Positions 1,985 to 26,803 of a stretch of DNA of 64,000 nt are shown piece after piece. The notes beneath the pieces were generated by a model. It did not search any database. It had not been told where the DNA came from and worked only from the letters and a program-made list of their open reading frames with translations. This stretch comes from Sphingobacteriales bacterium. Lineage in GTDB: Bacteria > Bacteroidota > Bacteroidia > Chitinophagales > JADJOU01. The translations under genes and the position numbers were made by a program. The stretch lies in the NCBI GenBank assembly GCA_021297855.1, contig JAJTHM010000012.1:57591-121590 (forward strand), written 5' to 3'. The stretch's first letter is position 1; every line of letters starts with the position of its first letter.

Positions 1985-2097
1985 AAGACTGCAAAGTTAG
2001 CTAATAAAACTCATTTCACACTTCAAACTCAATAAAATAAGATTTATTAAGAATTTTAAAACCTATTAATAATCAATCATATAGGCATATTTTTTGC

Positions 2098-2904: not shown

Positions 2905-2952
2905 TTTATTGTTATTTTAGAATTAGTTTGGAAAAGGGGTAATAGGTTACAG

Positions 2953-3570: not shown

Positions 3571-3597
3571 TTTATTAATTTAATCGTATAACTTAGA

Positions 3598-4579: not shown

Positions 4580-4594
4580 GACTCATTAAAAATA

Positions 4595-7495: not shown

Positions 7496-7516
7496 AAATG
7501 AATTGAATATGGAAAA

Positions 7517-7723
7517 TTAACGTCTGAGTAGGCCAAGTCTGTGAGGTCTTCTAGCGGTGGTTCTGTAAGAATTTCGTTTTACCCTGGTCGATCCAACCTC
7601 TTTACCAGATATACTGGCGCTTTTGCGTCTAGCCTCATCATTGCATACAGTAGAGTAACTCGATGCTTTTTTACAAGAAAATTGAACGCACAGTAGCGTT
7701 ATTATTATATATATGTACTTCAC
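7517..7723 (-). CDS. hypothetical small lipoprotein
   Basis: 68 aa with a lipobox-like IITLLCVQFSCKK and an Arg-rich tail. It lies 21 nt upstream of phoH on the same strand. No homology recognised. Confidence 0.3.
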   Translation of the reverse strand: MKYIYIIITLLCVQFSCKKASSYSTVCNDEARRKSASISGKEVGSTRVKRNSYRTTARRPHRLGLLRR

Positions 7724-7972
7724 TGCCTATTTTTATAGTTTAAATGCTAATTATACAACGACAAATTTATTAAAAATTGGGTCCTTTTCCTATTATTTTT
7801 TTGTAAATCCCGATTTTAAAAGGATTGTAGGCGTTTTTAATAAAAAAATAATCCACATTTTTAAAAGTAAAGAATTTTTATAAATAGCAGAAAAATAGAT
7901 ATTTAGATTAGATTGTGAGCCTTCAATATGGGCTTTTCCACAATAAAGAAAAAAGAAAATCTCGCAGAAGTA

Positions 7973-8001
7973 TTGCAAACAGTGGATTTGCTATAAATTT
8001 G
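7973..8001 (+). promoter_or_regulatory. candidate Bacteroidota sigma-A promoter for the HU gene
   Basis: TTG at 7973-7975 and TAAATTTG (TAnnTTTG -7 box) at 7994-8001 with 18-nt spacing, 39 nt upstream of the ATG at 8041. Confidence 0.4.
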
Positions 8002-8040
8002 CCCTTGTAATTAATTATTAACAACTAAAATCTTTAAAAG

Positions 8041-8328
8041 ATGAACAAAGGAGATTTAATCGACAAAATTGCTGGCGACGCAGGTATAACTAAAGCTGCA
8101 GCTGGTGATGCATTGAATTCTTTCATGAATGCAGTAAAGTCAACTCTACAGAAAGGTAACAAAGTTACTCTAGTAGGATTCGGAACTTTCTCTGTATCTA
8201 AAAGAAGCGCTAGAACAGGAAGAAATCCTCAAACTGGCAAAGAAATCAAAATAGCTGCTAAAACTGTAGCTAAATTTAAGGCTGGTGCAGATCTTTCTGC
8301 TTCTGCTGCAAAAGCAAAAGTAAAGTAA
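8041..8328 (+). CDS. hup: HU family DNA-binding protein
   Basis: [11 protein letters not shown]..., [28 protein letters not shown] arm motif. 95 aa with a short Ala/Lys tail. Confidence 0.92.
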
Positions 8329-8363
8329 TTTATAGTTATAATTTTATTACTTGCTTACTTACA

Positions 8364-8392
8364 CTCCGCAATTTATTGCGGAGTTTTTTTTT
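8364..8392 (+). terminator. rho-independent terminator after the HU gene
   Basis: 8-bp stem CTCCGCAA (8364-8371) / TTGCGGAG (8376-8383), 4-nt loop, then a 9-nt T run. Confidence 0.8.
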
Positions 8393-8488
8393 AAATAATA
8401 CAGAACGATGCTATGAACGATATAGCCGAATAAATATTTTCGATTATATTTGCTCGTAAGTCATTTTAAAATTAAATATAATTATCAC

Positions 8489-8707
8489 ATGGGAAAAGGC
8501 GATATCAAATCAAAAAAAGGGAAAATAGCAAGTGGGTCATTTGGTAAGAAAAGAAAGCAAAGAAATCCAAAAAAAACAGTTATTGTAGCCAAACCTACTA
8601 AGACCAAAAAAGTAGTGGAAGCTTCAAGCGAACTTGAGGTTAAGAAAACCAAAAAGACCACAAAAAGAACTGCAAAAAAAACCGATGAAAGTTCTAGTGA
8701 AGAATAG
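8489..8707 (+). CDS. 30S ribosomal protein THX with a Lys-rich C-terminal extension
   Basis: From the internal ATG: MGKGDIKSKKGKIASGSFGKKRKQRNPKK matches the THX core (GKGD..T.RGK...G.YG..RP). It continues as a Lys/Thr-rich tail to 72 aa. A TATATTTG box lies at 8445-8452. Confidence 0.7.
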   Translation: MGKGDIKSKKGKIASGSFGKKRKQRNPKKTVIVAKPTKTKKVVEASSELEVKKTKKTTKRTAKKTDESSSEE

Positions 8708-9230
8708 TTCTATTTTATTCGTTTGTGCAATCATCTTTTTATCTTGTAAATTTACAAAGAAGGATGTTGTTGAAACTGCCCCAAAAAATGAATCAGTTGC
8801 AGTTTCTAAATCCGAAAATCGGCAATTCATAGAAATAGAAGGACTAGGACCAAAGGGAGACACAGTTAAGTTCTCCAATATTAAAGCCAAATATATTCTC
8901 GTGGAATTTTGGGCATCATGGTGTCCGCCTTGCAGACAATTTAACCCTTGGCTCGTTAGTTTGTATTCAAAATATCAATCCAAAGGATTTGAAGTGCTCT
9001 CCATTTCTTTGGATACGGACGCTGATAAATGGCGAAATGCTATTGCTAAGGATGGTTTGATATGGCCAAATCATTTGTCTGATTTAGGTGGCTGGGATTC
9101 ATACTGGGCAGTAAAATATGGGGTAGAGTCCATTCCAGATAATTTTCTTGTGGACCCAAATGGGAAAGTTATTGCGAGTAGTATGTCTCATGAACAACTT
9201 GAAACGACCTTAGCTAATTTATTCAAATAG
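8685..9230 (+). CDS. TlpA-family thiol:disulfide oxidoreductase (thioredoxin fold) lipoprotein
   Basis: WASWCPPC CxxC motif. The start is chosen at MKVLVKNSSILFVCAIIFLSCK (lipoprotein signal). The ORF track begins at 8634, inside the THX gene. Confidence 0.85.
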   Translation: MKVLVKNSSILFVCAIIFLSCKFTKKDVVETAPKNESVAVSKSENRQFIEIEGLGPKGDTVKFSNIKAKYILVEFWASWCPPCRQFNPWLVSLYSKYQSKGFEVLSISLDTDADKWRNAIAKDGLIWPNHLSDLGGWDSYWAVKYGVESIPDNFLVDPNGKVIASSMSHEQLETTLANLFK

Positions 9231-10088
9231 ATTTTCAAAATTTTTTAATTCATAAATGCGCTTATTCCTAAAAAGGATAAGCGCATTTTCATTAAAGACC
9301 TGTAAAGAAATTACAGGACTCGAAAACTCAATTCTTTTCGGGTTTGTCATATCTATCTCCCCCGTGTGTTTGGTTTGAAATTGGAATAAATAATTCTGTT
9401 TATTCAAATAAGCATTGCCCTTGTATTCAAATATACCTTGGCACGAACCCATTTTTTTGGATTGGACCAGATTGCCATAGTCGTCCAAAATAAATATCCC
9501 ATAGCTGGTATCTATGGCTAGAGTATAATTTTTTATTTGAACTACCTCCGTAGGGAAGTAGAATTGTCCATTGACCTTGAAAGGATTTCTTTTCTGAGAT
9601 ATTTTTACGCCATTTTCATTTAACTTATACAGTATGTTTTCGCTAACATCCAGTACCCATATCATTTTATCTACAGTAAATTTGACGAAGGCAGGTTCGA
9701 AAATATGCAAAGGATCCAACTTGATATTGGAAATAACTCCCCACCGACTGTTTTTGATTTCAATAGTATTTTTATGTCTAAAGTAAAATAAATTTTTTAA
9801 TGGGGTATTCAAATCCAAAGACAATTGTCGGAGATTCAAGTTGTCTAAAGTGTCATTATATGATTTTTCAGGGCTGACCCGGATAATTCTGTTTTCGAAG
9901 AATAGCCATTTATTATTTAGCTTATCTACTTTTAAATCAAGCAAGGTCGTATCTCTAGAATAAATTAGAGTGTCGAGAAATGTTTGACAATAATATGACT
10001 TAACTAATAGGGTTAGGATTAAAATCAAAATTGCTCTTCTCGCTGCCATATTGGCGCAAAGATACTTCATTTCCATCAAAAATAGCAT
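9219..10088 (-). CDS. hypothetical exported protein
   Basis: 289 aa ORF with signal-like AILILILTLLVKSYYCQ. The start is probably internal (M7 or M14, around 10049-10070), because the ORF overlaps the lpxH 3' end. No family recognised. Confidence 0.45.
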   Translation of the reverse strand: MLFLMEMKYLCANMAARRAILILILTLLVKSYYCQTFLDTLIYSRDTTLLDLKVDKLNNKWLFFENRIIRVSPEKSYNDTLDNLNLRQLSLDLNTPLKNLFYFRHKNTIEIKNSRWGVISNIKLDPLHIFEPAFVKFTVDKMIWVLDVSENILYKLNENGVKISQKRNPFKVNGQFYFPTEVVQIKNYTLAIDTSYGIFILDDYGNLVQSKKMGSCQGIFEYKGNAYLNKQNYLFQFQTKHTGEIDMTNPKRIEFSSPVISLQVFNENALILFRNKRIYELKNFENLFE

Positions 10089-10785
10089 AGGTATTGTAGT
10101 CTAGCCAATCGCCCAGATTTAGATAGATAGACGTTGTATTATCTAATTTAGTATAAATTGGTAAATGCCTATGCCCAAAAATGTAGTAATCAAAGAATTT
10201 ATCTTTCATTATTTTCTGGCAATACACATATAACCATTCATTTTTATTTCCATGGTATTTTTCGGGTTCTAGCGGCTGGCCATACCGACTCCTGTATGAA
10301 AAAAAGTTAGCAATTCCTATACCTAAATCTGGATGAATCCATCTAAATAGAAATTGACAAATGGAGGATGCAAAAAACGTTTTAAGAAATTTATATTTGA
10401 AATCTCCAGGACCTAATCCATCTCCGTGGCCGATGAGAATGGATTTTAATCCGATCCGAATTTCAATCGGTTGAGAGTAGATTATTGCTTTAAATTCTTT
10501 GGTAAATAAATCACGCATCCACATATCATGATTCCCTTTGAAGAAGTGAAGCTGTATGCCATTATCGGACAGTTCTGCGAGTTTTCCAAGGAAGCGATAA
10601 TAGCCTTTTGGCACCACTGTCGTGTACTCAAACCAAAAGTCAAAAATATCTCCAACGAAGTAGATATCGCTGACTTCAGAAGCATACTGATCTAATAAAA
10701 GGCAAATTCTTTTCTCTCTATCCAAGCTTGAATTTACATCTGGAACGCCTAAATGGAAATCGGATAGAAACAGTTGTTTTTTCAC
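10000..10785 (-). CDS. lpxH: UDP-2,3-diacylglucosamine diphosphatase
   Basis: Calcineurin-like metallophosphoesterase motifs LSDFHLG, VGDIFDFWFEY, GNHDMW, GHGD and GHRH, with LpxH-like length. Confidence 0.85.
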   Translation of the reverse strand: MKKQLFLSDFHLGVPDVNSSLDREKRICLLLDQYASEVSDIYFVGDIFDFWFEYTTVVPKGYYRFLGKLAELSDNGIQLHFFKGNHDMWMRDLFTKEFKAIIYSQPIEIRIGLKSILIGHGDGLGPGDFKYKFLKTFFASSICQFLFRWIHPDLGIGIANFFSYRSRYGQPLEPEKYHGNKNEWLYVYCQKIMKDKFFDYYIFGHRHLPIYTKLDNTTSIYLNLGDWLDYNTYAIFDGNEVSLRQYGSEKSNFDFNPNPIS

Positions 10786-10801
10786 CTATGACGGTTGGAA
10801 T

Positions 10802-11512
10802 TTATTCAAAACAGCACTCTTCGCAATAGAACACAAAGACTTTCTTTGTGCCTCTGGAGTTCAAAATTGGCTTGTTCATAGCGAAACGCGTACCTCTTTC
10901 TTCAATAGAAATATCGAGTAGAAACGGAAAGACATCATGATGTTTTAGCATATAATCAGAAACTGCATGTTCTATGTTTAATTTTACTTGAGATTTAGAA
11001 GCCAGAACAATGTGAAATTCTGGAAAGTTTTCCAAAGGCCTAAATCTATTTTGATTGGTATTCAAGATGATATTGCCCTCATCGGAAACTAAGCTTTCAC
11101 AGTAGCTCAAAGCCACATGAGCATGGTCTATAACGCGTTCGATTTTTATTTGATTATCTATATCATTTTCTTTTAGGATACTTATCAAAGATTCTTCCCA
11201 AACAAAAACAGTTGTCAACTGATTTAATTTTAAAAACTGAATAAGTTTTTCTCCTAGCTCCTTTTTATCTGCACAGTAAATAAACTTCCCATCTTTATTG
11301 ATAAATTTTTGTGCAAAATTCAAATCGGCATCATGTGGTATTTCCACAAAGGACTTAGCGTGATTAAATATCTCATTTTCTAAGACATCCTGAGGTACAT
11401 AGGTCGTAAATAACTTTTTCGTAGGATCTGTATCTAAATCAGTCCCTTCAAGGTTTCTGCGACTATTGGCATTTGGCATTAAATTTGGAAACATCACTCT
11501 GTGTTTGAGCAA
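10802..11512 (-). CDS. LUD-domain (LutC/YkgG-like) protein
   Basis: 236 aa. The C-terminal half (VALSYCESLVSDEGNIIL..., FHIVLASKSQV) resembles the lactate-utilisation LUD domain. The track start is a TTG; an ATG at about 11494 is an alternative. Confidence 0.5.
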   Translation of the reverse strand: MLKHRVMFPNLMPNANSRRNLEGTDLDTDPTKKLFTTYVPQDVLENEIFNHAKSFVEIPHDADLNFAQKFINKDGKFIYCADKKELGEKLIQFLKLNQLTTVFVWEESLISILKENDIDNQIKIERVIDHAHVALSYCESLVSDEGNIILNTNQNRFRPLENFPEFHIVLASKSQVKLNIEHAVSDYMLKHHDVFPFLLDISIEERGTRFAMNKPILNSRGTKKVFVFYCEECCFE

Positions 11513-11615
11513 ATGTAATACAATATAGGATAGTGGTTAGACTCAACTATCTACGCTAAATCAAGGTCGTGGTTAAAAAAATAGACAAAATGACTTTTTC
11601 TTGAGAGATGAACCA

Positions 11616-14342
11616 CTAATCTAAATGAACTAATCTCTTCCCTTTGCTCTTTCTAATATTGACTGCAACTATTTTGTATTCTGGACACATAGCCTCAGAG
11701 TCGTGTTCATCGCTAGTAATAATATTGAGCATAACATCCGGGAAGTGGAAGGTGGTGCTGAGTACACCTTGTTTGACTTCCTCCGTAATACGTGCTTTTA
11801 TGTCCACTTTCCCTCTTGGTGATTCTACACACACAAAGTCGCCTTCTTGTATAAAATGTCTGGCAGCGTCATCTGGATGAATCATAATGACATCTTCCGT
11901 TAATATTTGAGCATTGCCTGTGCGGCGAGTCATGGTGCCACAATTGTAATGCTCTAATTCTCGATTGGTCGTAACTATATAGGGGTATTCTTTTTTATAT
12001 TTTTTGAGTTCATTGCTCTCTTCATAATCGAAATAATGAAACTTACCCAAGCCACGCGAGAATTTATCCAAATGCATTATTTGAGTATCTGTACCATCTT
12101 TTAATACAGGCCATTGCTTACCGTTTTTGCCCAATTCATCCCATTTGACTCCAGCGAAGAAAGGCACTATTTGAGAAATTTCTTCCAATACACCCGCAGC
12201 GTCATAATCCGCCTGAGGGAATCCCATGCGATTCATGATGTCAACAATGATTTGCCCATCAGGCTTTGTTCCCGCAAGAGGTTCTACCACTTTTTGTACC
12301 CGCTGAATTCTTCGTTCACCATTTGTGAATGTTCCACTTTTTTCTAAAAAGGATGAAGCGGGCAAAATCACAGTAGCATATTTTGCTGTTTCTGTCATGA
12401 ATATTTCTTGTACGACCAATAAGTCTAGTCCTTGCATAGCTGCTATCACTTTATTGGTATTGGGGTCGGTCTGCACCACGTCTTCACCCATCAGCCAAAG
12501 CGCCTTTAACTTCCCGTCAATAGATGCTTCAAACATTTCCGGAATTTTCAAACCTTTACCGAGAGGAATTTTTGTTTTGTAAAAATTCTCGTAATGTTTG
12601 TTGATTTCCGGATCATAGGCATTGAGATAGCCCGCACCCTGATGTGGCTGACAACCCATATCTGCAGCTCCTTGGACATTATTCTGGCCGCGGAGAGGAT
12701 TCACTCCTACCCCTTTTCTGCCTATATTTCCAGTGATCATAGCTAAATCTGAAATCAACATGACCGTATAACTACCTTGGGAATGTTCTGTCACACCAAG
12801 TCCATGGAAGGACATAGCGTTTCCAGCAGTAGCATAGGCTATAGCAGCTTTGCGAACTAACTCTCTATCTACACCCGTCACCGCTTCCATTTCATCCAAA
12901 TTTAAAGCTAAAATTTGTTCTTTAAATTCATCATATCCTTCCGTTCTAGTAGAAATAAATTCTTTGGACTCCAAGCCTTCTGAAATGATATAATAGAGCA
13001 TCATATTGAGCAGAGCTACATTCGTTCCAGGTTGCAGTTGTAAATGGTAAGTAGCATATTTTGCTATCTCTGTTTCTCGCGGGTCTATGACTATGGTTGT
13101 TTTACTCTTCATGGCAAACTGTTTCAACTTGGCGCCAGTCACAGGATGACCATCGGTAGGATTTGCACCGATAATCATGATGCAATTTGTATGCTTCAAA
13201 TCTTCAATAGAGTTGGTCGCAGCACCTGTGCCAAATGCACGCTGCATGCCTAGCGCAGTAGGTGAGTGACAAACACGTGCACAACAATCTATATTATTTG
13301 TTCCTATGACTGCTCGAATAAATTTCTGCATTAAATAGTTTTCTTCATTCGTGCATCGAGCGGAAGAAATTCCAGCGACAGCATCAGGACCATGTTGATT
13401 TACAATCGTTGTTAATTTATCTGCTATGAAATCATAAGCCTCGTCCCATGTGGCAGGAACTAATTCTCCATTTCTGCGAATGAGGGGTGTTTTGATTCGG
13501 TCTGGGTGTTTGTAAAATGAAAAGGCGTAGCGCCCTTTAAGACAGGTATGACCAGCATTCACCTCGGCATCAAAAGGAGCTCGAATGGACTTTACTTCAC
13601 CATTGAGTGTAGAGACTTCTAGATTGCAACCTACGCCACAATAAGTACAGATAGTTCGCGTTTTTTCTGTTCCTACGATTGATTTAGATTCGAATACATC
13701 TGAGATAGCTGATGTAGGACAAGCCTGAGCGCAGGCACCGCAGCTCACACAATCTGATTCGAAAAAATTCTCATCAAAACTTTTTATTATATGACTATCA
13801 AAACCTCTTCCAGCCATGGATAAAACGAATTCTCCCTGAACTTCTTCACAGGCGCGCACACAGCGGTAGCAGTTGATGCATTTGGAAAAGTCAGAGGTCA
13901 TATAGGGATGACTCAAATCTTTTTCTCTATCCAAATGATTTTTCCCTTCTGGATAGCGCACCTTCCTTACCCCTACTTTAGCCGCTACATCTTGAAGTTC
14001 ACAGTTATTGTTCACTTCACAAGTCAAACAATCTAGTGGATGATCGGTTAAGACCAATTCAATAATATTTTTTCGCAATTTGAGAATATCTTCACTATGG
14101 GTGTAGATATAGGAATTCTCCATGACTGGAGTATGGCACGAAGCTTGCGTTTTTCGACCACCATCTTTCTGAAGAGCCACTTCTACACTGCATACTCTGC
14201 ATGAACCAAAGGGCTTTAAATTTGGAGCGTCGCAAAGCGTCGGCACATAGTCCTGCTCAAAATATCGCTTGATAAATTGCAATAAAGTGTCGCCTTCATG
14301 ATATTCAAAAGGTTGGTCATTGATAAATGCTATTTTTGTCAT
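11616..14342 (-). CDS. fdhA: formate dehydrogenase alpha subunit (molybdopterin oxidoreductase with N-terminal 2Fe-2S/4Fe-4S domains), Cys-type
   Basis: N-terminal ferredoxin GSCRVCSVEV. Clusters CINCYRCVRACEE and CVSCGACAQACP. MopB cluster CTYCGVGC. Active-site region CARVCHSPT is uninterrupted, so Cys rather than Sec. C-terminal molydopterin-binding barrel. The start is placed at ATG 14342 (MTKIAFINDQ); the track GTG at 14375 lies inside the repeat element. Confidence 0.88.
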   Translation of the reverse strand: MTKIAFINDQPFEYHEGDTLLQFIKRYFEQDYVPTLCDAPNLKPFGSCRVCSVEVALQKDGGRKTQASCHTPVMENSYIYTHSEDILKLRKNIIELVLTDHPLDCLTCEVNNNCELQDVAAKVGVRKVRYPEGKNHLDREKDLSHPYMTSDFSKCINCYRCVRACEEVQGEFVLSMAGRGFDSHIIKSFDENFFESDCVSCGACAQACPTSAISDVFESKSIVGTEKTRTICTYCGVGCNLEVSTLNGEVKSIRAPFDAEVNAGHTCLKGRYAFSFYKHPDRIKTPLIRRNGELVPATWDEAYDFIADKLTTIVNQHGPDAVAGISSARCTNEENYLMQKFIRAVIGTNNIDCCARVCHSPTALGMQRAFGTGAATNSIEDLKHTNCIMIIGANPTDGHPVTGAKLKQFAMKSKTTIVIDPRETEIAKYATYHLQLQPGTNVALLNMMLYYIISEGLESKEFISTRTEGYDEFKEQILALNLDEMEAVTGVDRELVRKAAIAYATAGNAMSFHGLGVTEHSQGSYTVMLISDLAMITGNIGRKGVGVNPLRGQNNVQGAADMGCQPHQGAGYLNAYDPEINKHYENFYKTKIPLGKGLKIPEMFEASIDGKLKALWLMGEDVVQTDPNTNKVIAAMQGLDLLVVQEIFMTETAKYATVILPASSFLEKSGTFTNGERRIQRVQKVVEPLAGTKPDGQIIVDIMNRMGFPQADYDAAGVLEEISQIVPFFAGVKWDELGKNGKQWPVLKDGTDTQIMHLDKFSRGLGKFHYFDYEESNELKKYKKEYPYIVTTNRELEHYNCGTMTRRTGNAQILTEDVIMIHPDDAARHFIQEGDFVCVESPRGKVDIKARITEEVKQGVLSTTFHFPDVMLNIITSDEHDSEAMCPEYKIVAVNIRKSKGKRLVHLD

Positions 14343-14474: not shown

Positions 14475-16124
14475 TTATTTTAAATATTCTTTTAATTCCT
14501 CTTCAAAATACATCAATGCGTTTTTAATCGGTAAAGGCAATCCTCCACCTAATGCACATAGGGAGCCTTTTTCCATTGTATTCAATAAATCATTAAGTAA
14601 AGTTCTATCTATTTTATAATCTTCATTTTGCGCTTTTTTGAAAAGTTCGTAGCCGCGAGTAGATCCTAATCGGCAAGGGAAACATTTTCCGCAGCTTTCA
14701 TGCGCGGTAAATTGAAAAAGATGTTCGATGTATTTAACCAATGGAAAATTTTCTGGAATAGAAACTACAGAAGCATGACCTAAAAGAAATCCTTCTTTAC
14801 CGAAAGAATCAAAATCTATGCTTAGGTTCTTTATCTTTGACACAGGGACTAGTCCACCAAGTGGACCACCTATATGCAGTGCCTTCACTCTTTTGTTAAA
14901 TCCTTTACCTAGCTCTTCTATTACTGTTTGTAGCGGTGTCCCCATATCTACCTCATACATACCTGGTTGGTTAAAATGACTGTCGAGGCAAACTAGCTTT
15001 GTTCCTGTGGATTTAACAGTACCAATGGAAGCGTATTTCGCTCCACCATTTGCTAAGATAAATGGAATGTTGGCCAGCGTTTCCACGTTATTGACGACGG
15101 TAGGTTTATTGAACAATCCTACTTGAGTAGGGTATGGAGGACGCACGCGCACTTCAGGCCGCTGCCCTTCGATAGACGACAAGAGGGCGGTCTCCTCCCC
15201 ACAAATATAAGCGCCCATCGCCTTGACTACTTTGAAATCAAAATTAAAATTGGAGTCCAAAATATTTTTACCAATGAGATGATTCTCTCGTAAAAATGCA
15301 ATACTATCATTGATTTTATCTACAGACGCAGGGTATTCTCCTCTGATATAAACCACCCCCCAATTAGCTCCTATGACATAGCCAGTGAGTATCATGCCTA
15401 GAAGCAGTTTATGCGGTTGTTCTTCTAATAGGTATCTATCTGAATAAGCGCCTGGATCACCCTCATCGGCATTGCAGACCACGAATTTATCTTGTGATGG
15501 CGTGTTTTTACACGATTCTAATTTGAACCCCATGGCAAAACCTGCGCCACCTCTACCTCTAATGCCCGAGGCTTTGATTTCATTTAGAAGTTCATCTGGT
15601 GATTTCGAGAGAGATGTTTTTAGAAGACTATAAAATTGATTGAGGTCTTGGATTTTTTCTGTAAGAATAGGAGTGCCTATATAAGCTACATTATAGGTCT
15701 CTTTAGTATTCGATTTTGTCTTTTTTATGTCGGTTAAATTCTCAATATCAGTACCAGAGTAATTTTTACCATCGATATGAAAAGCTCCATTTTCATGACA
15801 ACGACCGAGACAGCACATTTCACCTACTTCATCTGAGGAGTATTCCTTTAGGATTTTATCTTTCAATTTTCCTTGCGTATCAGCTGTGAGGCATGCACTA
15901 CCATTGCATATATAGACTTTCTTCCCTTTATTTTCTGGTCGCAAGAAGTCATAAAAAGAGGTGGTCCCATATAAGGTGGACTTACCTACTAAGAATTCTT
16001 TCCGCAATTCCTCCATTTTCTCCAAATCTGGAGTGCCTGTATCCTGCGCAGCTATGCCTAGTTCCTCAAAAAGATTTTTGTCTAATCCTTTTCTACCCAA
16101 TAAATAACTTAAATTTTCTGGCAT
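14475..16124 (-). CDS. NuoE/NuoF-like fused diaphorase subunit (formate dehydrogenase beta/gamma; NAD(H)- and FMN-binding)
   Basis: N-terminal thioredoxin-like 2Fe-2S (CNGSAC ... CCLGRC). NuoF core GRGGAGF, NADEGDPGA and GAYICGEETAL. 4Fe-4S ESCGKCFPCR...C. Confidence 0.85.
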   Translation of the reverse strand: MPENLSYLLGRKGLDKNLFEELGIAAQDTGTPDLEKMEELRKEFLVGKSTLYGTTSFYDFLRPENKGKKVYICNGSACLTADTQGKLKDKILKEYSSDEVGEMCCLGRCHENGAFHIDGKNYSGTDIENLTDIKKTKSNTKETYNVAYIGTPILTEKIQDLNQFYSLLKTSLSKSPDELLNEIKASGIRGRGGAGFAMGFKLESCKNTPSQDKFVVCNADEGDPGAYSDRYLLEEQPHKLLLGMILTGYVIGANWGVVYIRGEYPASVDKINDSIAFLRENHLIGKNILDSNFNFDFKVVKAMGAYICGEETALLSSIEGQRPEVRVRPPYPTQVGLFNKPTVVNNVETLANIPFILANGGAKYASIGTVKSTGTKLVCLDSHFNQPGMYEVDMGTPLQTVIEELGKGFNKRVKALHIGGPLGGLVPVSKIKNLSIDFDSFGKEGFLLGHASVVSIPENFPLVKYIEHLFQFTAHESCGKCFPCRLGSTRGYELFKKAQNEDYKIDRTLLNDLLNTMEKGSLCALGGGLPLPIKNALMYFEEELKEYLK

Positions 16125-17037: not shown

Positions 17038-17586
17038 ATGAAACTAAAATTCATCTTTACTCTCCTACTCTTCGTATTAGCCTATGGCTCGAATGCTCAA
17101 AATGATAATCAACTGGAAAAGACTGCTCCAAAACCTGAGCAGGTGACTGTAAATTCCTCACTTTCTGCTCCTATTCAAGCTTTGCATGATTTGAGCATTT
17201 ATCCCAATTTGCCGAATATGGTCAAGAATGTAATTTTTATGGACCCGATGGCAAATGAACTGCTTTACAAAGTCGAGTTTTATGCGGTGAAAAGCTTGGA
17301 AGTTGATGATTGCAATAAGCACTACTTGTTTGGTGATTTTGAAGTGAAAACATTGGAGGGTTATGGGTACCCATACTATGTTTTTAATACTAACTCTCAA
17401 GTTATTTCTACAAAGATGGGTTGTGGCAATACTATAAAGAAGGTTAAAAATGTAGCTTCAGGCAAAACAGAGACTGTGCGCTATATGAGTATGCTCCCTA
17501 TAGTAGTCTATACTCCGAAAGATATAGACGTGAAATACAAAATTTGGCAACAAGATCCTAAAGAATTGGATGCTAGAAGTTTCTAA
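17038..17586 (+). CDS. eco: ecotin-family serine protease inhibitor, periplasmic
   Basis: Signal peptide LLLFVLAYGSNAQ. Strong resemblance to E. coli ecotin as I recall it: LEVDDCNKH..., KTLEGYGYPYYVF (ecotin KTLEGWGYDYYVF), reactive loop VISTKMGC (ecotin VSTMMAC), and LPIVVYTPKDIDVKYKIW (ecotin LPIVVYTPDNVDVKYRVW). Confidence 0.85.
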   Translation: MKLKFIFTLLLFVLAYGSNAQNDNQLEKTAPKPEQVTVNSSLSAPIQALHDLSIYPNLPNMVKNVIFMDPMANELLYKVEFYAVKSLEVDDCNKHYLFGDFEVKTLEGYGYPYYVFNTNSQVISTKMGCGNTIKKVKNVASGKTETVRYMSMLPIVVYTPKDIDVKYKIWQQDPKELDARSF

Positions 17587-18855: not shown

Positions 18856-18929
18856 GGCTGCGTAGTTCAACTGGATAGAATAACAGATTTCGACTCTGTT
18901 GGTTAGGGGTTCGAATCCCTTCGCGGTCA
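18856..18929 (+). tRNA. tRNA-Arg (anticodon UCG)
   Basis: Hand-folded cloverleaf of 74 nt. Acceptor GGCTGCG/CGCGGTC, D stem GTTC/GAAT, anticodon stem ACAGA/TCTGT with loop TT-TCG-AC, T arm AGGGG-TTCGAAT-CCCTT, discriminator A. No encoded CCA. Confidence 0.9.
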
Positions 18930-19012
18930 CTATATTAGTTCTCAGTATTAAGTCACAGTATCTGTTTTAAATGATAAACTAATACTCGTTGCTGCCTATC
19001 GAGATATAAACA

Positions 19013-19927: not shown

Positions 19928-20605
19928 GTGAATTATATTTCCCATTATTATTGTCTAAAAGATAAAAATCCCTACACTACTTTGGGGACACTTTTGCCAG
20001 ATATAATTCCACATTTTTCTTATTTGCATAATAAATATTTTTTGCATTATAATTCCCAGTCACTTAATAAAGAAGAATTTCAACTTTGGCTCGGAGTGGA
20101 GAATCACTATGCGGATGACAGTTTTTTTCACTCTATGTCATTGTTTAAGCAAGGGATGATAAGCATAGAAGAAGAGATGCATAAAAATTTAGTTCTTAAA
20201 GAACTTAGGAGAAAATATCTGATTTCTCACGTTCTTTATGAACTAATCCTCGATCATTTGATCCTAGAGAGATTTCCAGATATTGCTGAGAATATCTATG
20301 CTGATTTAGAGCAGGTTGATATATCGAAATTAGGAATATTTCTAAAAAAAATAATAGGCGAAAATGAAAAAGTTAACCTATTTTTGGATTCATATGATAG
20401 ATTTCTCGATAGGCGATTTTTGGGTTTTTACGGCATAGATAGCAATTTAGTAAAATCGCTGCATATGGTATCTGGTAAAATAAGCCAGTGGGATTTCAAT
20501 AAAGAGACAATCAATGGATTTACGGCGATAATAAGAAAAATGAAGAAGGAGATTGATTTTAAGTTAGTATTCGAAAGTATATTTAAACACAAGGAGATAA
20601 GGTGA
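19928..20605 (+). CDS. hypothetical protein, possibly ACP phosphodiesterase (AcpH/DUF479)-like
   Basis: GTG start. MNYISHYY resembles the AcpH N-terminus MNFLAHL. H..DD.FH and LILDHL motifs are in comparable positions. Weak assignment. Confidence 0.4.
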   Translation: MNYISHYYCLKDKNPYTTLGTLLPDIIPHFSYLHNKYFLHYNSQSLNKEEFQLWLGVENHYADDSFFHSMSLFKQGMISIEEEMHKNLVLKELRRKYLISHVLYELILDHLILERFPDIAENIYADLEQVDISKLGIFLKKIIGENEKVNLFLDSYDRFLDRRFLGFYGIDSNLVKSLHMVSGKISQWDFNKETINGFTAIIRKMKKEIDFKLVFESIFKHKEIR

Positions 20606-21762
20606 AGCATATCGTGATTTTGATTCTGATTACAGGAAGCGTGAACGTAAATTCACAGTCTGTTCGAAAATATTCAAATGAATTTTTAAAAATTGGTGTT
20701 GGAGGGAAATATTTAGGAACAGGAGGATCTTTAGTGACTTCTGAATCCGACCCTGCTTCTGTATTTTATAATCCTGCAGGTGTTGGAGCATTTGACCGTG
20801 TTTCAGTTTCCGCGATGCACAATTCCTATTTTGCAGGAATCGCCAACTTTGATTATGTGGGAGTAGTTTTCCCATTGAAATATCGACAAAATATTGGAGT
20901 TAGTCTAATACGCTTTGGCATAGATAATATCCCCAATACAATTCAGTTATACAATCCAGATGGTAGTATAAATTACGATAGAATAAGTTCGTTTTCAATT
21001 TCAGATATGGCATTGTTTCTCAGTTTCGGTAGGAGATTACAAGATACTCAGGGTTTGTCATTTGGAGGAAATGTCAAAATTATAAAAAGAGACTATGGTT
21101 CCTTTGCCAATGCATGGGGATTTGGAGTCGATGCTGGAGTTCAGTATGCGACAGACAAATATAGGCTGGGTATTTTTCTGCAAGATATTAGCTCAACCTT
21201 TTCTAGCTGGAATTTCACTTTTGATGATTCTACCAAAAAAGTCTTTGCGGCTACTGGAAATGAGATACCATCTTCTTCGAGTGAGATTACTTTGCCAAGT
21301 GTGCACTTTGGCGGTCAATATAATTTCCTTTTTGGAAAAGGGAAACAAATGAAGTTTTCTCCCATGGGCAAAGTTTCAATATACACAGATAAGCGAAATG
21401 TATTACTCCCAGGTCCGGTAAGTGCGGATGTCTCTCTAGGGGGCGAATTTGGTATTTATCACATCGCATTTTTACGATTTGGATTGAGTAATTTTACCAA
21501 GGCTACTAATGACTTAGGGGAAGATTATCTCAGTTTTCAACCTTCAATAGGCGCAGGGTTTAGACTCAATCAGTTTGATATAGATTATGCATTTAATAAT
21601 GTTGGAAACTCTGGTGTAGGTCTTTATTCACATGTTTTTTCGCTTTCTTATAGATTTAAGAAAAAAGATAAATATAGTAGACCGAATGTGGCGCCTGAAA
21701 ATTCTCCATCTAGCCCGAACACACCAGGCAACAATGATAATATACCAGTAAAATTAGATTGA
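20602..21762 (+). CDS. PorV/PorQ-family (FadL-like) outer-membrane beta-barrel, T9SS-associated
   Basis: Signal peptide. N-terminal hatch motif EFLKIGVGGKYLGTGGSLVTSESDPASVFYNPAGVG. Alternating beta-strand pattern with the barrel ending ...FSLSYRF. GTGA start/stop overlap with the upstream gene, and 4 nt before the C25 peptidase gene. Confidence 0.7.
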   Translation: MKHIVILILITGSVNVNSQSVRKYSNEFLKIGVGGKYLGTGGSLVTSESDPASVFYNPAGVGAFDRVSVSAMHNSYFAGIANFDYVGVVFPLKYRQNIGVSLIRFGIDNIPNTIQLYNPDGSINYDRISSFSISDMALFLSFGRRLQDTQGLSFGGNVKIIKRDYGSFANAWGFGVDAGVQYATDKYRLGIFLQDISSTFSSWNFTFDDSTKKVFAATGNEIPSSSSEITLPSVHFGGQYNFLFGKGKQMKFSPMGKVSIYTDKRNVLLPGPVSADVSLGGEFGIYHIAFLRFGLSNFTKATNDLGEDYLSFQPSIGAGFRLNQFDIDYAFNNVGNSGVGLYSHVFSLSYRFKKKDKYSRPNVAPENSPSSPNTPGNNDNIPVKLD

Positions 21763-21766
21763 GCAT

Positions 21767-24700
21767 ATGAAGAAAATTTTACTTCTCTTTGTTTTATTAA
21801 TTAGTTTATCAGTTAGGAGCCAAGGACCATACGGCCATGAGTGGATAGATGCTGCGAAGGTACATTACAAATTTCCTATTATCAATACTGGAATATATAG
21901 AATTCCGTATTCATTTTTACAAGCCAATTGTCCTGAAATAGCCAATGGTAGTAAGGCTGAAATATGTATGTATAATAATGGAAATCAGGTTCCAATTTAT
22001 ATTTCTTGGACAGGAAGTCCAAGTTCTAGTGACTTTATAGAATTTTACGGGAAGAGATTAGATGCTGAAATTGATAAACGATTGTATGCAGATTCAAATT
22101 TTGTTTTAAATCCTTTTTCCAGTCTTTTTAAAGATACAAATTATTATTTTCTTACCTTAAGATCTGGTTCAAACCTGCGAATAATAGAATATAACAATGA
22201 TACTGCTAGTATTGCAGATCCCTATCTGAATCATTGCATTGCGACGGCACTGAATCAATACAAAGTAGCCTATAGCGATGGAAGACGCTGGTACTATTCA
22301 GCTACACAATATTCAATAAGACCTTCCTACGATATTGGTGAAGGATGGGGAACCAATGCTTATACTAGTTTAAATTTTTCAACTCCGAATTTTGTGAACA
22401 CAAGTGGCTTAAGTGCTAAACTAAGAGCAAGACTTTTTGCACGAAATGAATCATCTCACAATTTGGAATTTAAAATAAATGGTATCTTGGTAGGAACACA
22501 GAACGCTGTTGGTAGCACTCTAATTAATTTTGAAAATGATATTCCAGCTAGTTCTGTTACTTCTGCCACTACCTCACTTGCTATAGCCCCATTACTCCCA
22601 AATAATCACGGCTATTGCTTAGGATATGCTTCTCTGGCCTATCCCCGAGACTTTAGTTTTTCTGGACTCAATCAATTTAGTTTTTCCCTACCACCTTCTT
22701 TAGGTTCTGTTCGATTTCAAATTTCTAATTATAACTCAACTAATGAAGTGGTACTTCACGATATGGCCAACAATACAAGGACTGCACATCAAGCAGCATC
22801 CGGACATCGTTTCTTAGTTAATGCCCAAGGTGCCAAAAGTCAGTTGGCTATAGCGCACACGGCTTCTATTTTAAGTGTAAATTCGATAGTTAAATATAAT
22901 TTCTCAAATCTTTTGACGCAACGTGGAAATTTTGTAATAATAGCTAATAGAGCCATGCAATTCGATTCTAGTGGAGTCGATATAACCCAGCAATACAAAA
23001 ATTATAAGGAATCAGTCGCTGGCGGATCTTTTCAGGTAGTGGTGGCTTATATGGATGAGTTGCAAGAAATGTTTGGTTATGGTCATCCAAAACATCCATT
23101 GGCTATTCGCAAATTTTTGCAATGGTCGCAAATATGGGGAGGGAAGGTTCCTAAACATGCCCTGCTCATTGGCAAAGGATTTGCTACAAATAGTCTATTT
23201 AGCGCAGTCGGAACCAATTACACAAACAATTTTATTCCATCGTTTGGGCACGCTCCATCGGATTATCATTACGGCACCATGGATGGATCAGATATACAAT
23301 TTATTAGTATTGGACGATTGGCAGTGACTAATGGCCAAACGGTCAAAAATTATTTAGAAAAGCTCAAGGAGTACAATTCGGAATACAATGCAACCTCCGA
23401 TTTAGATCAAAATCCAAATAAAAAAGAGTATATGAAGTGGGTAGTGCATCTCGGCGGGGGCACTGGCGCGCAGCAGCAAGCGGACTATAGAGCCAATCTG
23501 CAATCGTACGAAGCTATTGCAAAAGATACGCTTTATGGTGCACGGACTTTTTCTGTTTTTAAAAATGGACCAGATATTTCAGAAGATGTCACTTCGGTAG
23601 ATTTATCCAATAGAATTAATAAGGGCGTAAGCTTAATTACCTTTTTTGGGCATTCTTCGGCTACAATTTTTGATGTAGGCATTGGCGAGCCGAGCACATT
23701 TACCAATAAAGGAAAATATCCTGTTTTTTTGGCGAATGGATGTAATTCAGGATTTTTCTACGGTGGAGGCTTATCTTATTCTGAGAGTTTTATAAATTTG
23801 AAGGATAAAGGAGCAATCGGTTTTCTGGCGACAACTAATACGGCATTGGATGCTGCTCTATATCAATATGGAAACGCATTCTATGAACAATTGACCAAGA
23901 ATTCCTACAATATGTCGGTAGGTGAAGTAGCAAAAAATGCCAGTGCTGCTCTGCTATCAGGTGGCGTTATGAACTATTTGAATACTACTTTTATGGAGTT
24001 TAATCTCAATGGAGATCCTTCTGTGCCAATAACTCAATATGCCAAGCCAGACTATTACATAGGTTCTAGTTCTATTATTTTACCAACATATAATTTGAAT
24101 ACTATTATCGACTCGTTTCCAGTCAAAATAATTATACATAATCTCGGAAAGGCCATACGCGGGAGTATCAAGATAAAGTTAGAGAGGATCAATAATGGCA
24201 ATTCAGCTATCTATGAAAAGATTGTGACAGCTCCGATTTTTATTGACACCTTTGTGCTAAATATTCCTACACGTGACCAAAATTTTGGGATAGGCATTAA
24301 TTCGTTCAATGTAAAAGTAGATGCAGATGATTCTTACTCAGAAATTTCTGAAGTCAATAATGAAATTAAAAATACAGGGAATATATTAATTGAAAACGAC
24401 GATATACTACCTATATTCCCTTATGAATACTCAATAGTATCTTCCAATACGGCTAAGTTGATAGCTATGTCAACACTATTAAATAGACCGACAAGGAGCT
24501 ATGTATTTCAAATCGACACCACAGAGGAATTCAATAGTTCATTTTTAAAAACGTACAAATCAGATATTACAAATGAAAGTATTATTACTTGGCAACCATC
24601 TTTAGTTTTTCAAGACTCCTCCGTTTATTATTGGAGGGTGAGCAAAGATTCTCTGCCTGGACAAGGTTATAGATGGAATAATTCTTCTTTTATCTATATA

Positions 24701-26803
24701 CCAAATCAACCATTGGGAGGATGGAATCAGTCTCATTATTTTCAGTATCTTAAAAATGCATACAAGAATGTATTTATCGGATCTTCGAGAAGTTTTCAAT
24801 TTGTCAATGATGTAAAAAGTATTTCATTTAAGATTAATGGAAGTAACAATACCTACGAGGTAGAATGGTACTTGAATAATGCTCGTCAAGCAGTATTAAG
24901 AGAAGCGGGAAGAATGACAAACGGAATTTTTGTAATATGGATAGATGGTAAGTCGGGAATAGCTCGCCAAAGTATGGATTCAAATTATGGCTCAAGAGTT
25001 TGGGGGAGTTTTGGGTCCATTCAGTTTGGTTATACAGGTATTCCAAGAGAAGGATTCGTTTTTCAAGATACAGGACTGACACCTGTCAATCACCCAATGC
25101 CAAATACCCCATGGTCTTCGGTTATGCTCAGCTTCTTAAATCAAGTGCCCGATGGCGACTATTTATTATTTTACTCGAATAAGAGACCTGTTTATCCTTC
25201 CTGGAGTGCGGATTTGAAAAACTATTTTTTCAATGCGGGCTTTTCTAGTCTGCAGCAACTAGTCAATGGTACAGTGGTGGCACCATTTATCTTTGGATAT
25301 AGAAAAAATATATCCAGTTTTCCTATTTATCAGAAATTGGGAACGGATTATACTAGTTTTACTACTGGAGAAATGTTCATCAATGGTAGCTGGAAAGAAG
25401 GCTTTAAAGAATCTGTCTTAGCCGGTCCAGCGAAAAAATGGCATACACTAAGCTATAGAACGGAGGCTGCAGAACCTATGAGTCAGGATATTAATTCCAT
25501 AGAATTGTATGGTGTAAAATCAAATAAACAAAGAGAACTATTAAAGACCTTTAATACACCAGTGCTCGACACTAATATTGAATGGATTGATCCCAATACC
25601 TATTTGAATCTGCAGTTAAAACTAAATACTAAAGATGAATTAAATAGAACGCCAGCCCAGTTAAAGCATTGGCGAATCTATTTTGAAGATATAGGGGAAG
25701 TAGCTATAAACAGCTCCTCAAACCTAGTTCCAAAAATGCGAGATACTATAGAAAATGGGGAGAAAATTACTTTAAATTTTGGAGTAGAGACCCTTAATTC
25801 CAATAGCTTTGACTCTCTAAGTTACAGGATAATCATTAGTCAAGGGAATCAGACCAAACAATTGATCGGTAAGACCGCTCCTTTAGCAGGCAACACCTTT
25901 CAATTAGTTCAGCGAGAGTTGACCTTGAACGATTATTTCGAAGGTCAAAATTCTGTGAGTTATGAGATCAATCCAACTAATCTGGCTTATCAAAAAGAAA
26001 AATTTGAGGTAAACAATTATAGTAAGTCAAGCTTTTTCGTAAAATCGGATATAGAGAATCCCCTTCTTGATGTGACATTTGACGGAGTTCATATCATCAA
26101 TAATGAGCTAGTATCCAGTTCCCCAAATATCAGAATAGCCCTTAAAGATGAAAACAAGTATTTGCTCCTCGACGATACTTCGCTTATTAAGTTATTCTTG
26201 CGATATCCTGATGGTAGCCAAAGACCCATTCTTTTTTCCCAAGCCGGCGTCAATTATACCTTGGCTAGTTCGGGGAGCAATCGAGCAGAGATTAATTATA
26301 AACCAGAACTTAGCGATGGAACCTATCAACTCATAGTGAAGGATAGCGATAGAGCAGGCAATAGCAGCAGCCCCAATGGCAGCTTTAACTTTAAAATTTC
26401 TTTTCAGGTTATCACAAAAAGTCAAGTTTCACATTTTGTAAACTATCCCAATCCGTTTACTACAGCTACTCAGTTTGTTTTTACTTTGACAGGAGCGAAG
26501 GTTCCAGACTTTATTAAAATTCAGATTATCAATATAAGAGGACAAGTCGTAAAAGAAATTTTCAAAGAGGACCTAGGGCCACTCAAACTCGGGATAAATA
26601 GAACTCAATACGCCTGGGATGGTAAAGATCAATACGGAGATGCCTTAGCCAATGGAGTCTATCTCTATAAAGTCACGGTAAAAAACAATGGTGAGGATAT
26701 ACCAATGATGGATGAAAAAGACTTTAAGTCTATTAATAAATCAAACAAGAACCTGGGCCAATATTTCAAAGATGGCTGGGGCAAGATGGTGATAATAAGA
26801 TAG
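21767..26803 (+). CDS. giant C25 (gingipain-like) cysteine peptidase with a T9SS C-terminal domain; PorU-like sortase paralogue
   Basis: 1678 aa with a signal peptide. C25-like core: GNFVIIANRAM, IPSFGHAPSDYHYG, ITFFGHSS (putative His), FLANGCNSGF (putative Cys). C-terminal sorting domain: NYPNPFTTATQFVFTL...IINIRGQVVKEI...GVYLYKVTV...GKMVIIR. Confidence 0.75.
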   Translation: MKKILLLFVLLISLSVRSQGPYGHEWIDAAKVHYKFPIINTGIYRIPYSFLQANCPEIANGSKAEICMYNNGNQVPIYISWTGSPSSSDFIEFYGKRLDAEIDKRLYADSNFVLNPFSSLFKDTNYYFLTLRSGSNLRIIEYNNDTASIADPYLNHCIATALNQYKVAYSDGRRWYYSATQYSIRPSYDIGEGWGTNAYTSLNFSTPNFVNTSGLSAKLRARLFARNESSHNLEFKINGILVGTQNAVGSTLINFENDIPASSVTSATTSLAIAPLLPNNHGYCLGYASLAYPRDFSFSGLNQFSFSLPPSLGSVRFQISNYNSTNEVVLHDMANNTRTAHQAASGHRFLVNAQGAKSQLAIAHTASILSVNSIVKYNFSNLLTQRGNFVIIANRAMQFDSSGVDITQQYKNYKESVAGGSFQVVVAYMDELQEMFGYGHPKHPLAIRKFLQWSQIWGGKVPKHALLIGKGFATNSLFSAVGTNYTNNFIPSFGHAPSDYHYGTMDGSDIQFISIGRLAVTNGQTVKNYLEKLKEYNSEYNATSDLDQNPNKKEYMKWVVHLGGGTGAQQQADYRANLQSYEAIAKDTLYGARTFSVFKNGPDISEDVTSVDLSNRINKGVSLITFFGHSSATIFDVGIGEPSTFTNKGKYPVFLANGCNSGFFYGGGLSYSESFINLKDKGAIGFLATTNTALDAALYQYGNAFYEQLTKNSYNMSVGEVAKNASAALLSGGVMNYLNTTFMEFNLNGDPSVPITQYAKPDYYIGSSSIILPTYNLNTIIDSFPVKIIIHNLGKAIRGSIKIKLERINNGNSAIYEKIVTAPIFIDTFVLNIPTRDQNFGIGINSFNVKVDADDSYSEISEVNNEIKNTGNILIENDDILPIFPYEYSIVSSNTAKLIAMSTLLNRPTRSYVFQIDTTEEFNSSFLKTYKSDITNESIITWQPSLVFQDSSVYYWRVSKDSLPGQGYRWNNSSFIYIPNQPLGGWNQSHYFQYLKNAYKNVFIGSSRSFQFVNDVKSISFKINGSNNTYEVEWYLNNARQAVLREAGRMTNGIFVIWIDGKSGIARQSMDSNYGSRVWGSFGSIQFGYTGIPREGFVFQDTGLTPVNHPMPNTPWSSVMLSFLNQVPDGDYLLFYSNKRPVYPSWSADLKNYFFNAGFSSLQQLVNGTVVAPFIFGYRKNISSFPIYQKLGTDYTSFTTGEMFINGSWKEGFKESVLAGPAKKWHTLSYRTEAAEPMSQDINSIELYGVKSNKQRELLKTFNTPVLDTNIEWIDPNTYLNLQLKLNTKDELNRTPAQLKHWRIYFEDIGEVAINSSSNLVPKMRDTIENGEKITLNFGVETLNSNSFDSLSYRIIISQGNQTKQLIGKTAPLAGNTFQLVQRELTLNDYFEGQNSVSYEINPTNLAYQKEKFEVNNYSKSSFFVKSDIENPLLDVTFDGVHIINNELVSSSPNIRIALKDENKYLLLDDTSLIKLFLRYPDGSQRPILFSQAGVNYTLASSGSNRAEINYKPELSDGTYQLIVKDSDRAGNSSSPNGSFNFKISFQVITKSQVSHFVNYPNPFTTATQFVFTLTGAKVPDFIKIQIINIRGQVVKEIFKEDLGPLKLGINRTQYAWDGKDQYGDALANGVYLYKVTVKNNGEDIPMMDEKDFKSINKSNKNLGQYFKDGWGKMVIIR

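Follow-up and report, generated by a model that had tools for sequence, protein, structure and literature searches.

A barrel and peptidase gene pair of the PorV2/PorU2 families, related to the type IX secretion sortase PorU, in a Sphingobacteriales genome

The sortase PorU of the T9SS (type IX secretion system) cleaves the C-terminal domains (CTDs) of cargo proteins and transfers the cargo to anionic lipopolysaccharide. In the classical order, described for Porphyromonas gingivalis (PG0026-PG0027), its gene precedes that of PorV. The CTDs of PorU itself and of PorZ are not cleaved and remain bound to PorV and PorQ, respectively; they comprise 108 and 96 residues, versus 67 to 88 for the cleaved CTDs of cargo, and a Lys is conserved in the last CTD strand. 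Here we analyze two adjacent genes that encode, in the reverse order, a PorV-like barrel (PorV2) and a very large C25 peptidase related to PorU (PorU2), located in 64,000 nucleotides of an uncultured Sphingobacteriales bacterium placed in Chitinophagales by GTDB (GenBank assembly GCA_021297855.1, contig JAJTHM010000012.1, positions 57,591 to 121,590 of the forward strand). This whole stretch is referred to below as the window and is numbered from its first nucleotide. The pair is probably an ancient paralogous copy of PorV/PorU that exists beside the canonical pair and serves as a surface-anchored CTD peptidase or transpeptidase. The PorU2/PorV2 family has already been catalogued by NCBI and is functionally uncharacterized; the window pair is a new member of it.

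Two further kinds of described proteins bear on the comparison. Gingipains such as RgpB and Kgp have a C25 catalytic fold and are exported as cargo with short, cleaved CTDs, without the N-terminal domains of PorU. PorP/SprF-like barrels of Flavobacterium johnsoniae are encoded beside the cargo with type B CTDs that they presumably serve.

Family membership and architecture of PorV2 and PorU2

The PorV2 gene (20602..21762, 386 aa, GTG start) and the PorU2 gene (21767..26803, 1678 aa) are separated by a spacer of 4 nt (GCAT, 21763-21766, read directly from the sequence); both genes, and all features within them, lie on the plus strand. In GenBank records from Chitinophagales and 'Sphingobacteriales' metagenome-assembled genomes (MAGs), the encoded proteins (MCE2962039.1 and MCE2962040.1) bear older labels, the peptidase 'C25 family cysteine peptidase' and the barrel 'PorV/PorQ family protein'. 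NCBIfam release 20 holds more specific models under provisional names, NF052324 (PorU_rel_Nterm, 'putative type IX secretion system sortase PorU2') and NF052325 (PorVQ2, 'putative type IX sorting system protein PorV2'), and the window proteins pass them over the full model length. The peptidase scored 639.7 bits on NF052324 (cut-off, 450; E = 8e-192), with residues 4-865 aligned to positions 2-879 of this 879-position N-terminal model. The barrel scored 368.1 bits on NF052325 (cut-off, 325; E = 4e-110), with residues 7-352 aligned to positions 7-353/354. The names PorU2 and PorV2, which the first-pass annotation of this DNA had mentioned as provisional, therefore do exist, and its description of a 386-aa PorV/PorQ-like barrel followed by a C25 peptidase with a T9SS-type CTD stands, together with the coordinates, spacer and motifs that it gave. 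The peptidase falls below the cut-off of the canonical PorU model NF033707 (191 versus 420 bits, residues 33-755). The models discriminate in both directions, since canonical PorUs of Chitinophagaceae score 800 to 1326 bits on the PorU model and 160 to 165 bits on the PorU2 model.

The barrel belongs to the PorV/PorQ superfamily (NF033709, PorV_fam; 94.3 bits versus a cut-off of 90, residues 27-352) but fails both of the specific models within it. It scored 59.1 bits on PorQ (NF033711; cut-off, 220) and gave no match to canonical PorV (NF033710; cut-off, 250) at E ≤ 0.01, and the PorV2 homologue of another locus (L072) scored 34.7 bits on the PorV model; PorQ scores of PorV2 were 59 to 63 bits. 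The window barrel is also far below the cut-off of the PorP/SprF model (TIGR03519; 18.8 versus 90.55 bits). Since the PorQ score is slightly higher than the PorV score, PorV2 may be an anchor rather than a shuttle, as far as such model scores can suggest. A signal peptide is predicted at residues 1-18 (MKHIVILILITGSVNVNS|Q; 20602..20655), read from the sequence with a presumed cleavage site before Gln19, and the family consensus at the mature start is ...AQxRKYSNEF. The N-terminal 'hatch'-type motif ...GTGGSLVTSESDPASVFYNPAGVG is present, and its residues N57-P58-A59-G60 (20770..20781) are invariant in 13 diverse PorV2 proteins. A profile of these 13 proteins had one significant match in the PDB, F. 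johnsoniae PorV (6H3I chain F, E = 4.7e-4), and this match runs through the NPAG-containing motif. PorV2 thereby resembles PorV in its N-terminal ...D-x5-7-NPA... arrangement as well as in its position beside a PorU-type gene.

Near the end of the window, a 540-aa open reading frame (ORF) at 62003-63625 (+) starts with a signal peptide, and its N-terminal motif ...SNLSTNPAGLGMF is reminiscent of the NPAG 'hatch' seen in PorV2 and in FadL-type barrels. It had no Pfam or NCBIfam match at E ≤ 0.01 and is a candidate unclassified outer-membrane barrel. The preceding ORF (61113-61979, +, 288 aa) has a W/N/G-rich repeat (GWNSWN...) in its C-terminal half, followed by an S/G/N/P-rich tail, and matches no family.

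PorU2 begins with a predicted signal peptide (residues 1-18, then Gln19; 21767..21820; read from the sequence). Gln19 is kept in ≥90% of 24 aligned family members, and residues 16-19 have a low predicted local distance difference test score (pLDDT) in the structure model described below. The Peptidase_C25 domain (PF01364) spans residues 390-754 (22934..24028; 157.7 bits versus 23, E = 6.6e-46) and aligns at profile level with residues 357-788 of PorU and 91-374 of RgpB. The candidate catalytic dyad of the first-pass annotation holds up: His629 (ITFFGHSS, codon 23651..23653) falls in one alignment column with its counterparts in PorU (YAGHGG) and RgpB (YTGHGS), and Cys659 (FLANGCNSGF, codon 23741..23743) likewise with the Cys residues of PorU (ATCDF) and RgpB (ACVNG). 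These columns are common to PorU2, canonical PorUs, P. gingivalis PorU and RgpB. Both residues are invariant among the 24 members and among a set of 54, down to 25% identity, as are the neighboring G628 and P652. The catalytic residues of PorU are His657 and Cys690; the numbering of the PDB chain gives 655 and 688, an offset of two residues.

Residues 1-870 were modeled with AlphaFold (AF2) from 54 family sequences, at a pLDDT of 90.5 and a predicted template modeling score of 0.89. The top match of this model in a Foldseek search of the PDB was P. gingivalis PorU (6ZA2, E = 3.8e-33), and the gingipains RgpB and Kgp followed at E = 1e-16 to 1e-18. For residues 861-1678 (pLDDT, 89.3), PorU was again the top match (E = 9e-10), and the matches after it were generic arrays of Ig/MG-type β-sandwiches only. 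A fusion of PorU with PorZ was considered and rejected, as neither PorZ nor any β-propeller was among the Foldseek matches of this C-terminal half. Searched against the PDB, the family profile detected PorU at E = 6.4e-22 in three collinear stretches: an N-terminal strand motif (YYKIKVAEDGIYRI in PorU2, WVKIRVDASGVYRL in PorU), the C25 core (FFGHSS versus YAGHGG and ANGCxSG versus ATCDF) and the CTD (profile positions 1527-1633 versus PorU residues 1042-1148). Because the profile aligns the two N termini, the first-pass view that the N terminus of the peptidase differs from that of canonical PorU was not confirmed.

The modeled domains of PorU2 follow one another in the order seen in PorU, with one large addition. 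PorU-like β-domains occupy residues 19-389 (21821..22933), where alignment to the canonical PorU model starts at residue 33 and the AF2 model is all-β with a pLDDT mostly of ∼85 to 97. The C25 domain is followed by a β-sandwich at residues ∼780-870 (24104..24376; AF2 strands 783-851), which is CARDB-like in homologues (Pfam CARDB in 6 of 24 members). Residues ∼871-1427 (24377..26047; mean AF2 pLDDT, 89.3) form a PorU2-specific extension of ∼560 residues, made up of several β-sandwiches and one α/β domain. Next comes an Ig-like domain at residues ∼1428-1548 (26048..26410; NPLLDVTFDG motif; Pfam Big_13, 25.2 bits), also present in canonical PorU. When PorU2 and PorU of a single MAG were compared by BLASTP, this last Ig-like domain and the CTD were 30% identical over 227 residues (E = 7e-22), and the C25 cores were 23% identical over 337 residues. 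As the two proteins share these regions, the segment at ∼871-1427 is an insert. It accounts for a protein much larger than canonical PorU, as the first-pass annotation had remarked: PorU2 is ∼540 residues longer than the PorUs of Chitinophagaceae (1120 to 1190 aa). Family length is ∼1650 to 1740 aa, and full length is kept down to 28% identity. An exhaustive HMMER search with the insert returned 925 cluster representatives (50% identity) at E ≤ 1e-30. Among the 150 matches listed, the long ones (∼1590 to 1775 aa) hold the insert at the same position, and the shorter ones look like fragments; the insert is therefore apparently specific to the PorU2 architecture.

The α/β domain of the insert (residues ∼1116-1191, 25112..25339) is ILEI/FAM3-like: the assignment coincides with the α/β segment of the model, and weak FAM3 matches were found in the PDB. 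Six of 24 members carry a Pfam ILEI/FAM3 assignment, which exceeds the threshold in P0028, P0030 and P0091 at approximately residues 1063-1200. The annotation occurs in none of the 120 canonical PorUs listed. Members of the ILEI/FAM3 fold in eukaryotes (the POMGnT1 stem domain and FAM3C) bind carbohydrate, and by analogy the domain of PorU2 may do so, which is a lead and not a result.

The T9SS CTD comprises residues 1559-1678 (26441..26800, ∼120 aa) and contains NYPNPF from residue 1559, GVYLYKVTV and a terminal MVIIR. Besides its alignment with the CTD of PorU, it is recognized by Pfam FlgD_ig (29.5 bits versus 27) and, marginally, by the type A model TIGR04183. N1559, P1561, N1562, P1563, F1564 and K1673 are invariant in 24 members. 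With ∼120 residues, a length closer to the published retained CTDs than to the cleaved ones, and an invariant Lys in the last strand, it looks like a CTD of the retained, docking type.

Distribution of the pair and its relation to canonical porU and porV

Relatives of PorU2 were found in at least 592 genomes in a scan of one genome per species. Most carriers belong to Chitinophagaceae, Saprospiraceae or unclassified Bacteroidota, with Terrimonas ginsenosidimutans, Taibaiella koreensis, Cnuella takakiae RG1-1 and Pseudoflavitalea sp. among the isolates represented. PorV2 lies directly upstream of PorU2 on the same strand in 71 of the 78 loci with enough upstream DNA, a pattern that extends across these three groups, usually at a spacing of -32 to +68 nt. 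The inverted order pointed out by the first-pass annotation is thus conserved in most of these loci. Beyond PorV2, no conserved neighbor surrounds the pair in the loci compared. Three loci contained disrupted genes. An insertion with two ATPase-like ORFs breaks one PorU2 gene close to the 3′ end (L017:14926-17156), a PorV2 gene is frameshifted (L037:8668-9775) and another PorU2 gene carries a frameshift at its 3′ end (L082:∼14859-15086); both frameshifts are possibly assembly errors.

Canonical PorUs were collected with two baits. The first, 432 residues of P. gingivalis PorU, returned matches of 242 to 756 aa and not P. gingivalis PorU itself; short queries can miss full-length relatives. The second, of full-length size, was an artificial chimera of two proteins (P0198 and P0219), and the real proteins that it retrieved were classified separately. 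P0198, annotated as 'type IX secretion system sortase PorU, partial [Chitinophagaceae bacterium]', scored 800 bits on the PorU model and 160 bits on the PorU2 model. The chimera recovered 1120 canonical PorUs of 1120 to 1190 aa, many of them from named Chitinophagaceae (Flaviaesturariibacter and Flavisolibacter). At all six canonical places inspected, a divergently transcribed gene for an FGE-sulfatase-domain protein is followed by porU and then by porV (Pfam PorV). The FGE-sulfatase-domain protein is one that we take to be GldJ-like, as in F. johnsoniae. No such gene adjoins the window pair.

The canonical loci (L083-L087 and one more) also have other neighbors in common. A Mur-ligase gene usually lies beyond the FGE-sulfatase-domain gene, and in five of the six (not in L087) porV is followed by ispF (YgbB), dut, a DUF4292 gene and, in loci that extend to it, an M23 peptidase gene.

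Both pairs occur in one MAG assembly, JAOQAI01 (GCA_025963645.1, Flaviaesturariibacter sp. RYN_278). Contig JAOQAI010000005.1 encodes a canonical PorU (1326 bits) and PorV (464 bits), and contig JAOQAI010000016.1 a PorU2 (918 bits) and PorV2 (539 bits). Each of the four exceeds the cut-off of its own model and falls short on the sister model. The two contigs, ∼190 kb each, are mutual best tetranucleotide matches among 63 loci (r = 0.93). Within a single MAG, the local match between PorV2 and PorV covers just 53 residues. A canonical pair alongside PorU2/PorV2, for which the first-pass annotation had suggested a search, is therefore present in a related MAG; the comparison covered that MAG and not the window's own genome. 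No contig with both pairs was found when the contigs of 120 canonical PorUs were compared with the PorU2 loci in genome and metagenome scans. A single coincidence in size between canonical PorU and PorU2 contigs (13,498 bp) concerned different contigs, and the canonical PorU assemblies VFQR01 and JAFJZQ01 were absent among the PorU2 loci collected.

The relationship between the two kinds of peptidase was addressed by a neighbor-joining tree with 200 bootstraps, computed from 237 columns of the C25 core and rooted on RgpB. The PorU2 clade was recovered in 200/200 replicates; all canonical PorUs, those of Porphyromonas and Chitinophagaceae included, formed one clade in 197/200. The PorUs of Chitinophagaceae grouped with PorU2 in 0/200. 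Because the C25 tree separates the two clades, PorU2 is an old paralogue of PorU rather than the product of a local rearrangement. The models, the coexistence in JAOQAI01 and this tree together support the central proposal of the first-pass annotation, namely, a second PorU/PorV-type pair distinct from the canonical module.

P. gingivalis PorU is the closest described protein: it ranks first among structural matches to either half of PorU2 and shares the N-terminal motif, C25 dyad, pre-CTD Ig-like domain and long CTD in the same order. PorU2 is 13% identical to PorU in the structural alignment, contains the inserted β-sandwich array with the ILEI-like domain, is encoded after its barrel and away from any FGE-sulfatase-domain gene, and forms a clade of its own.

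Proposed role of the pair and alternative explanations

The reading that we favor, of PorV2/PorU2 as a paralogous attachment pair, would involve the following steps. Both proteins would be exported by Sec, and PorV2 would fold in the outer membrane as a barrel of the PorV/PorQ family. PorU2 would cross the outer membrane via the T9SS with its own CTD as the signal. The long CTD would be kept and would dock on PorV2, like PorU on PorV and PorZ on PorQ, holding a catalytically competent Cys659/His629 peptidase at the cell surface. There, PorU2 would cleave the CTDs of a subset of T9SS cargo and would perhaps transfer this cargo to a surface glycan, and the β-sandwich stalk and the ILEI/FAM3-like domain may give reach or bind the acceptor.

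Several observations weigh against this proposal. The coexistence with a canonical pair was seen in one related MAG, depends on its binning and does not concern the window's own genome. The predicted barrel fold of PorV2 comes from hidden Markov model (HMM) membership and the weak match to PorV. The CTD of PorU2 exceeds the TIGR04183 cut-off by a narrow margin (23.5 versus 23 bits). ILEI reaches just 13 bits in the window protein (residues 1117-1165), and carbohydrate binding by this fold is known for eukaryotic members alone. In seven loci (L010, L017, L025, L035, L055, L060 and L066; five Saprospiraceae, one Chitinophagales and one Chitinophagaceae MAG), PorU2 has no PorV2-like ORF within 10 kb, so the partnership is not obligatory in cis; either the barrel of these orphans is encoded elsewhere or another barrel is used. 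When 82 loci and the window were searched with an HMM of the PorU2-type CTD, no separate cargo protein came up near the pair, and the matches besides intact PorU2 were fragments of the interrupted gene in L017 and of the frameshifted gene in L082. Literature searches returned no real use of the names PorU2 and PorV2 and no experimental study, nor anything relevant on 'PorU-like' or 'PorU paralog' proteins; text matches in T9SS papers were superscript reference numbers, and others were on unrelated subjects. As far as publications on these names go, the first-pass remark that no experimental characterization was known is accurate.

Some of these points would be expected if PorU2 were itself a T9SS cargo protein, a large surface-anchored protease for nutrition, for the maturation of particular surface proteins or for remodeling of the surface, with PorV2 as its private shuttle or anchor. 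We regard this explanation as possible but doubtful. A CTD protein beside a dedicated PorV-like barrel is the established PorP/SprF pattern, which also weighs against the favored reading, and gingipains are C25 cargo proteases with the same fold and aligned dyad. The lack of a PorU2-specific cargo signal near the pair fits a protein that is cargo itself. Tandem copies, more typical of effectors than of core machinery, occur in some lineages: two PorU2 genes in four loci (L033, L039, L053 and L068; in L068 the order is PorV2 1939-3183, PorU2a 3158-8020, PorU2b 8045-13081) and two PorV2 genes ahead of PorU2 in a Saprospiraceae MAG (L020). These copies are lineage-specific expansions of the module. 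However, the CTD of PorU2 is type A-like and PorU-like and not of type B (CHU_C, just 17 bits). PorU2 and PorU also share more than the C25 core, as the N-terminal domains, the pre-CTD Ig-like domain and the CTD occur in both in the same order, and as a structural match PorU surpasses the gingipains (E ∼ 4e-33 versus ∼1e-18) by 15 orders of magnitude in E value. The family keeps nearly the same length and architecture in hundreds of species, usually with one copy in a housekeeping-type context; this, too, is not what a cargo protease would suggest.

A second alternative holds that the pair is the organism's only PorU/PorV, that is, the canonical sortase with a swapped gene order and extra domains. 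The remaining ORFs of the window include no recognizable T9SS component, as this alternative would allow. It is very unlikely, and it is already contradicted for the family: the peptidase fails the PorU model, the barrel has no match on the PorV model, canonical PorUs in the porU-porV order are abundant in Chitinophagaceae, one MAG holds both pairs and, in the tree, the PorUs of Chitinophagaceae group with that of Porphyromonas and not with PorU2.

We consider it just as improbable that PorU2 is a catalytically dead structural surface protein, such as an adhesin or a stalk, that has kept the C25 fold. Ig-like and β-sandwich domains do make up most of the protein, but His629, Cys659 and their neighbors G628 and P652 are invariant in all members examined, which a pseudo-enzyme would not be expected to show.

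An extension of the favored reading is that PorV2 and PorU2 form a self-contained second attachment complex, in which a barrel and one giant enzyme do the jobs that PorV-PorU and PorQ-PorZ share in Porphyromonas, the extension with its ILEI/FAM3-like domain binds the glycan acceptor and a distinct subset of cargo is sorted onto another surface polymer than that of the canonical sortase. In this extended form the proposal is a long shot.

Genomic setting and significance

The PorV2 gene is preceded by an ORF of 225 aa (19928-20605, +), with which it overlaps by GTGA (20602-20605, read directly from the sequence), and nadE begins 7 nt past the stop codon of PorU2. The first-pass annotation had called the upstream gene AcpH-like and had taken the overlap to imply co-translation; neither statement is supported. 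The sole match of the 225-aa product was a subthreshold one to Pfam Zn_dep_PLPC (26.1 versus 26.8 bits), with no NCBIfam family and no PDB relative. Approximately 93.5% of the window is coding, the median gap between genes on the same strand is 16 nt and 14 of 47 same-strand junctions overlap; tight spacing is a general property of this genome, and the overlap therefore implies no functional coupling. A scan for σ70 promoters and intrinsic terminators over 18.3-29.4 kb gave counts equal to those of shuffled sequence and was uninformative, as expected for Bacteroidota. Functional coupling of the pair to its cytoplasmic neighbors, the 225-aa gene and nadE, in one purposeful operon is almost certainly wrong: the genes are tightly spaced on one strand, but so are genes throughout this compact window, the AcpH-like assignment is without support, and synteny is not conserved, with the 225-aa gene upstream of the pair in just 2 of 82 loci and nadE beside it in none.

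Farther upstream, in the same same-strand run as the pair, a tRNA-Arg(TCG) gene (18856-18930, +) lies between coaD and a periplasmic-binding-protein-like gene. Approximately 3 kb upstream of the pair, a gene at 17038-17586 (+) encodes a secreted protein of 182 aa that is homologous to ecotin (Pfam Ecotin, 108.9 bits). Ecotins are serine protease inhibitors, and no connection of this one with the C25 peptidase emerged.

Downstream, a long, mostly same-strand cluster for polysaccharide biosynthesis (∼31000-54000) begins ∼4 kb past the pair. It contains a sugar dehydrogenase, a flippase, an aminotransferase, asparagine-synthase-like and HisH/HisF-like genes, glycosyltransferases, an epimerase and a sugar transferase. 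These genes were assigned by eye from their translations, and one of them is named 'polysaccharide biosynthesis protein' in GenBank. A tie between the cluster and an acceptor glycan of PorU2 would be pure speculation.

The analysis supports the provisional names PorU2 and PorV2 given by NCBI to a family that is hidden under older 'C25 family cysteine peptidase' records. If PorV2 and PorU2 did form a self-contained complex, it would constitute a second, parallel pathway for anchoring proteins to the cell surface in Chitinophagia and Saprospiria. Published work leaves open what decides whether T9SS cargo is released or attached to the surface, and by what means PorU selects substrates; PorU2, which occurs with its own barrel in hundreds of Bacteroidota species from soil and fresh water, and beside the canonical sortase in one related MAG, may naturally be considered for a part in this selection.

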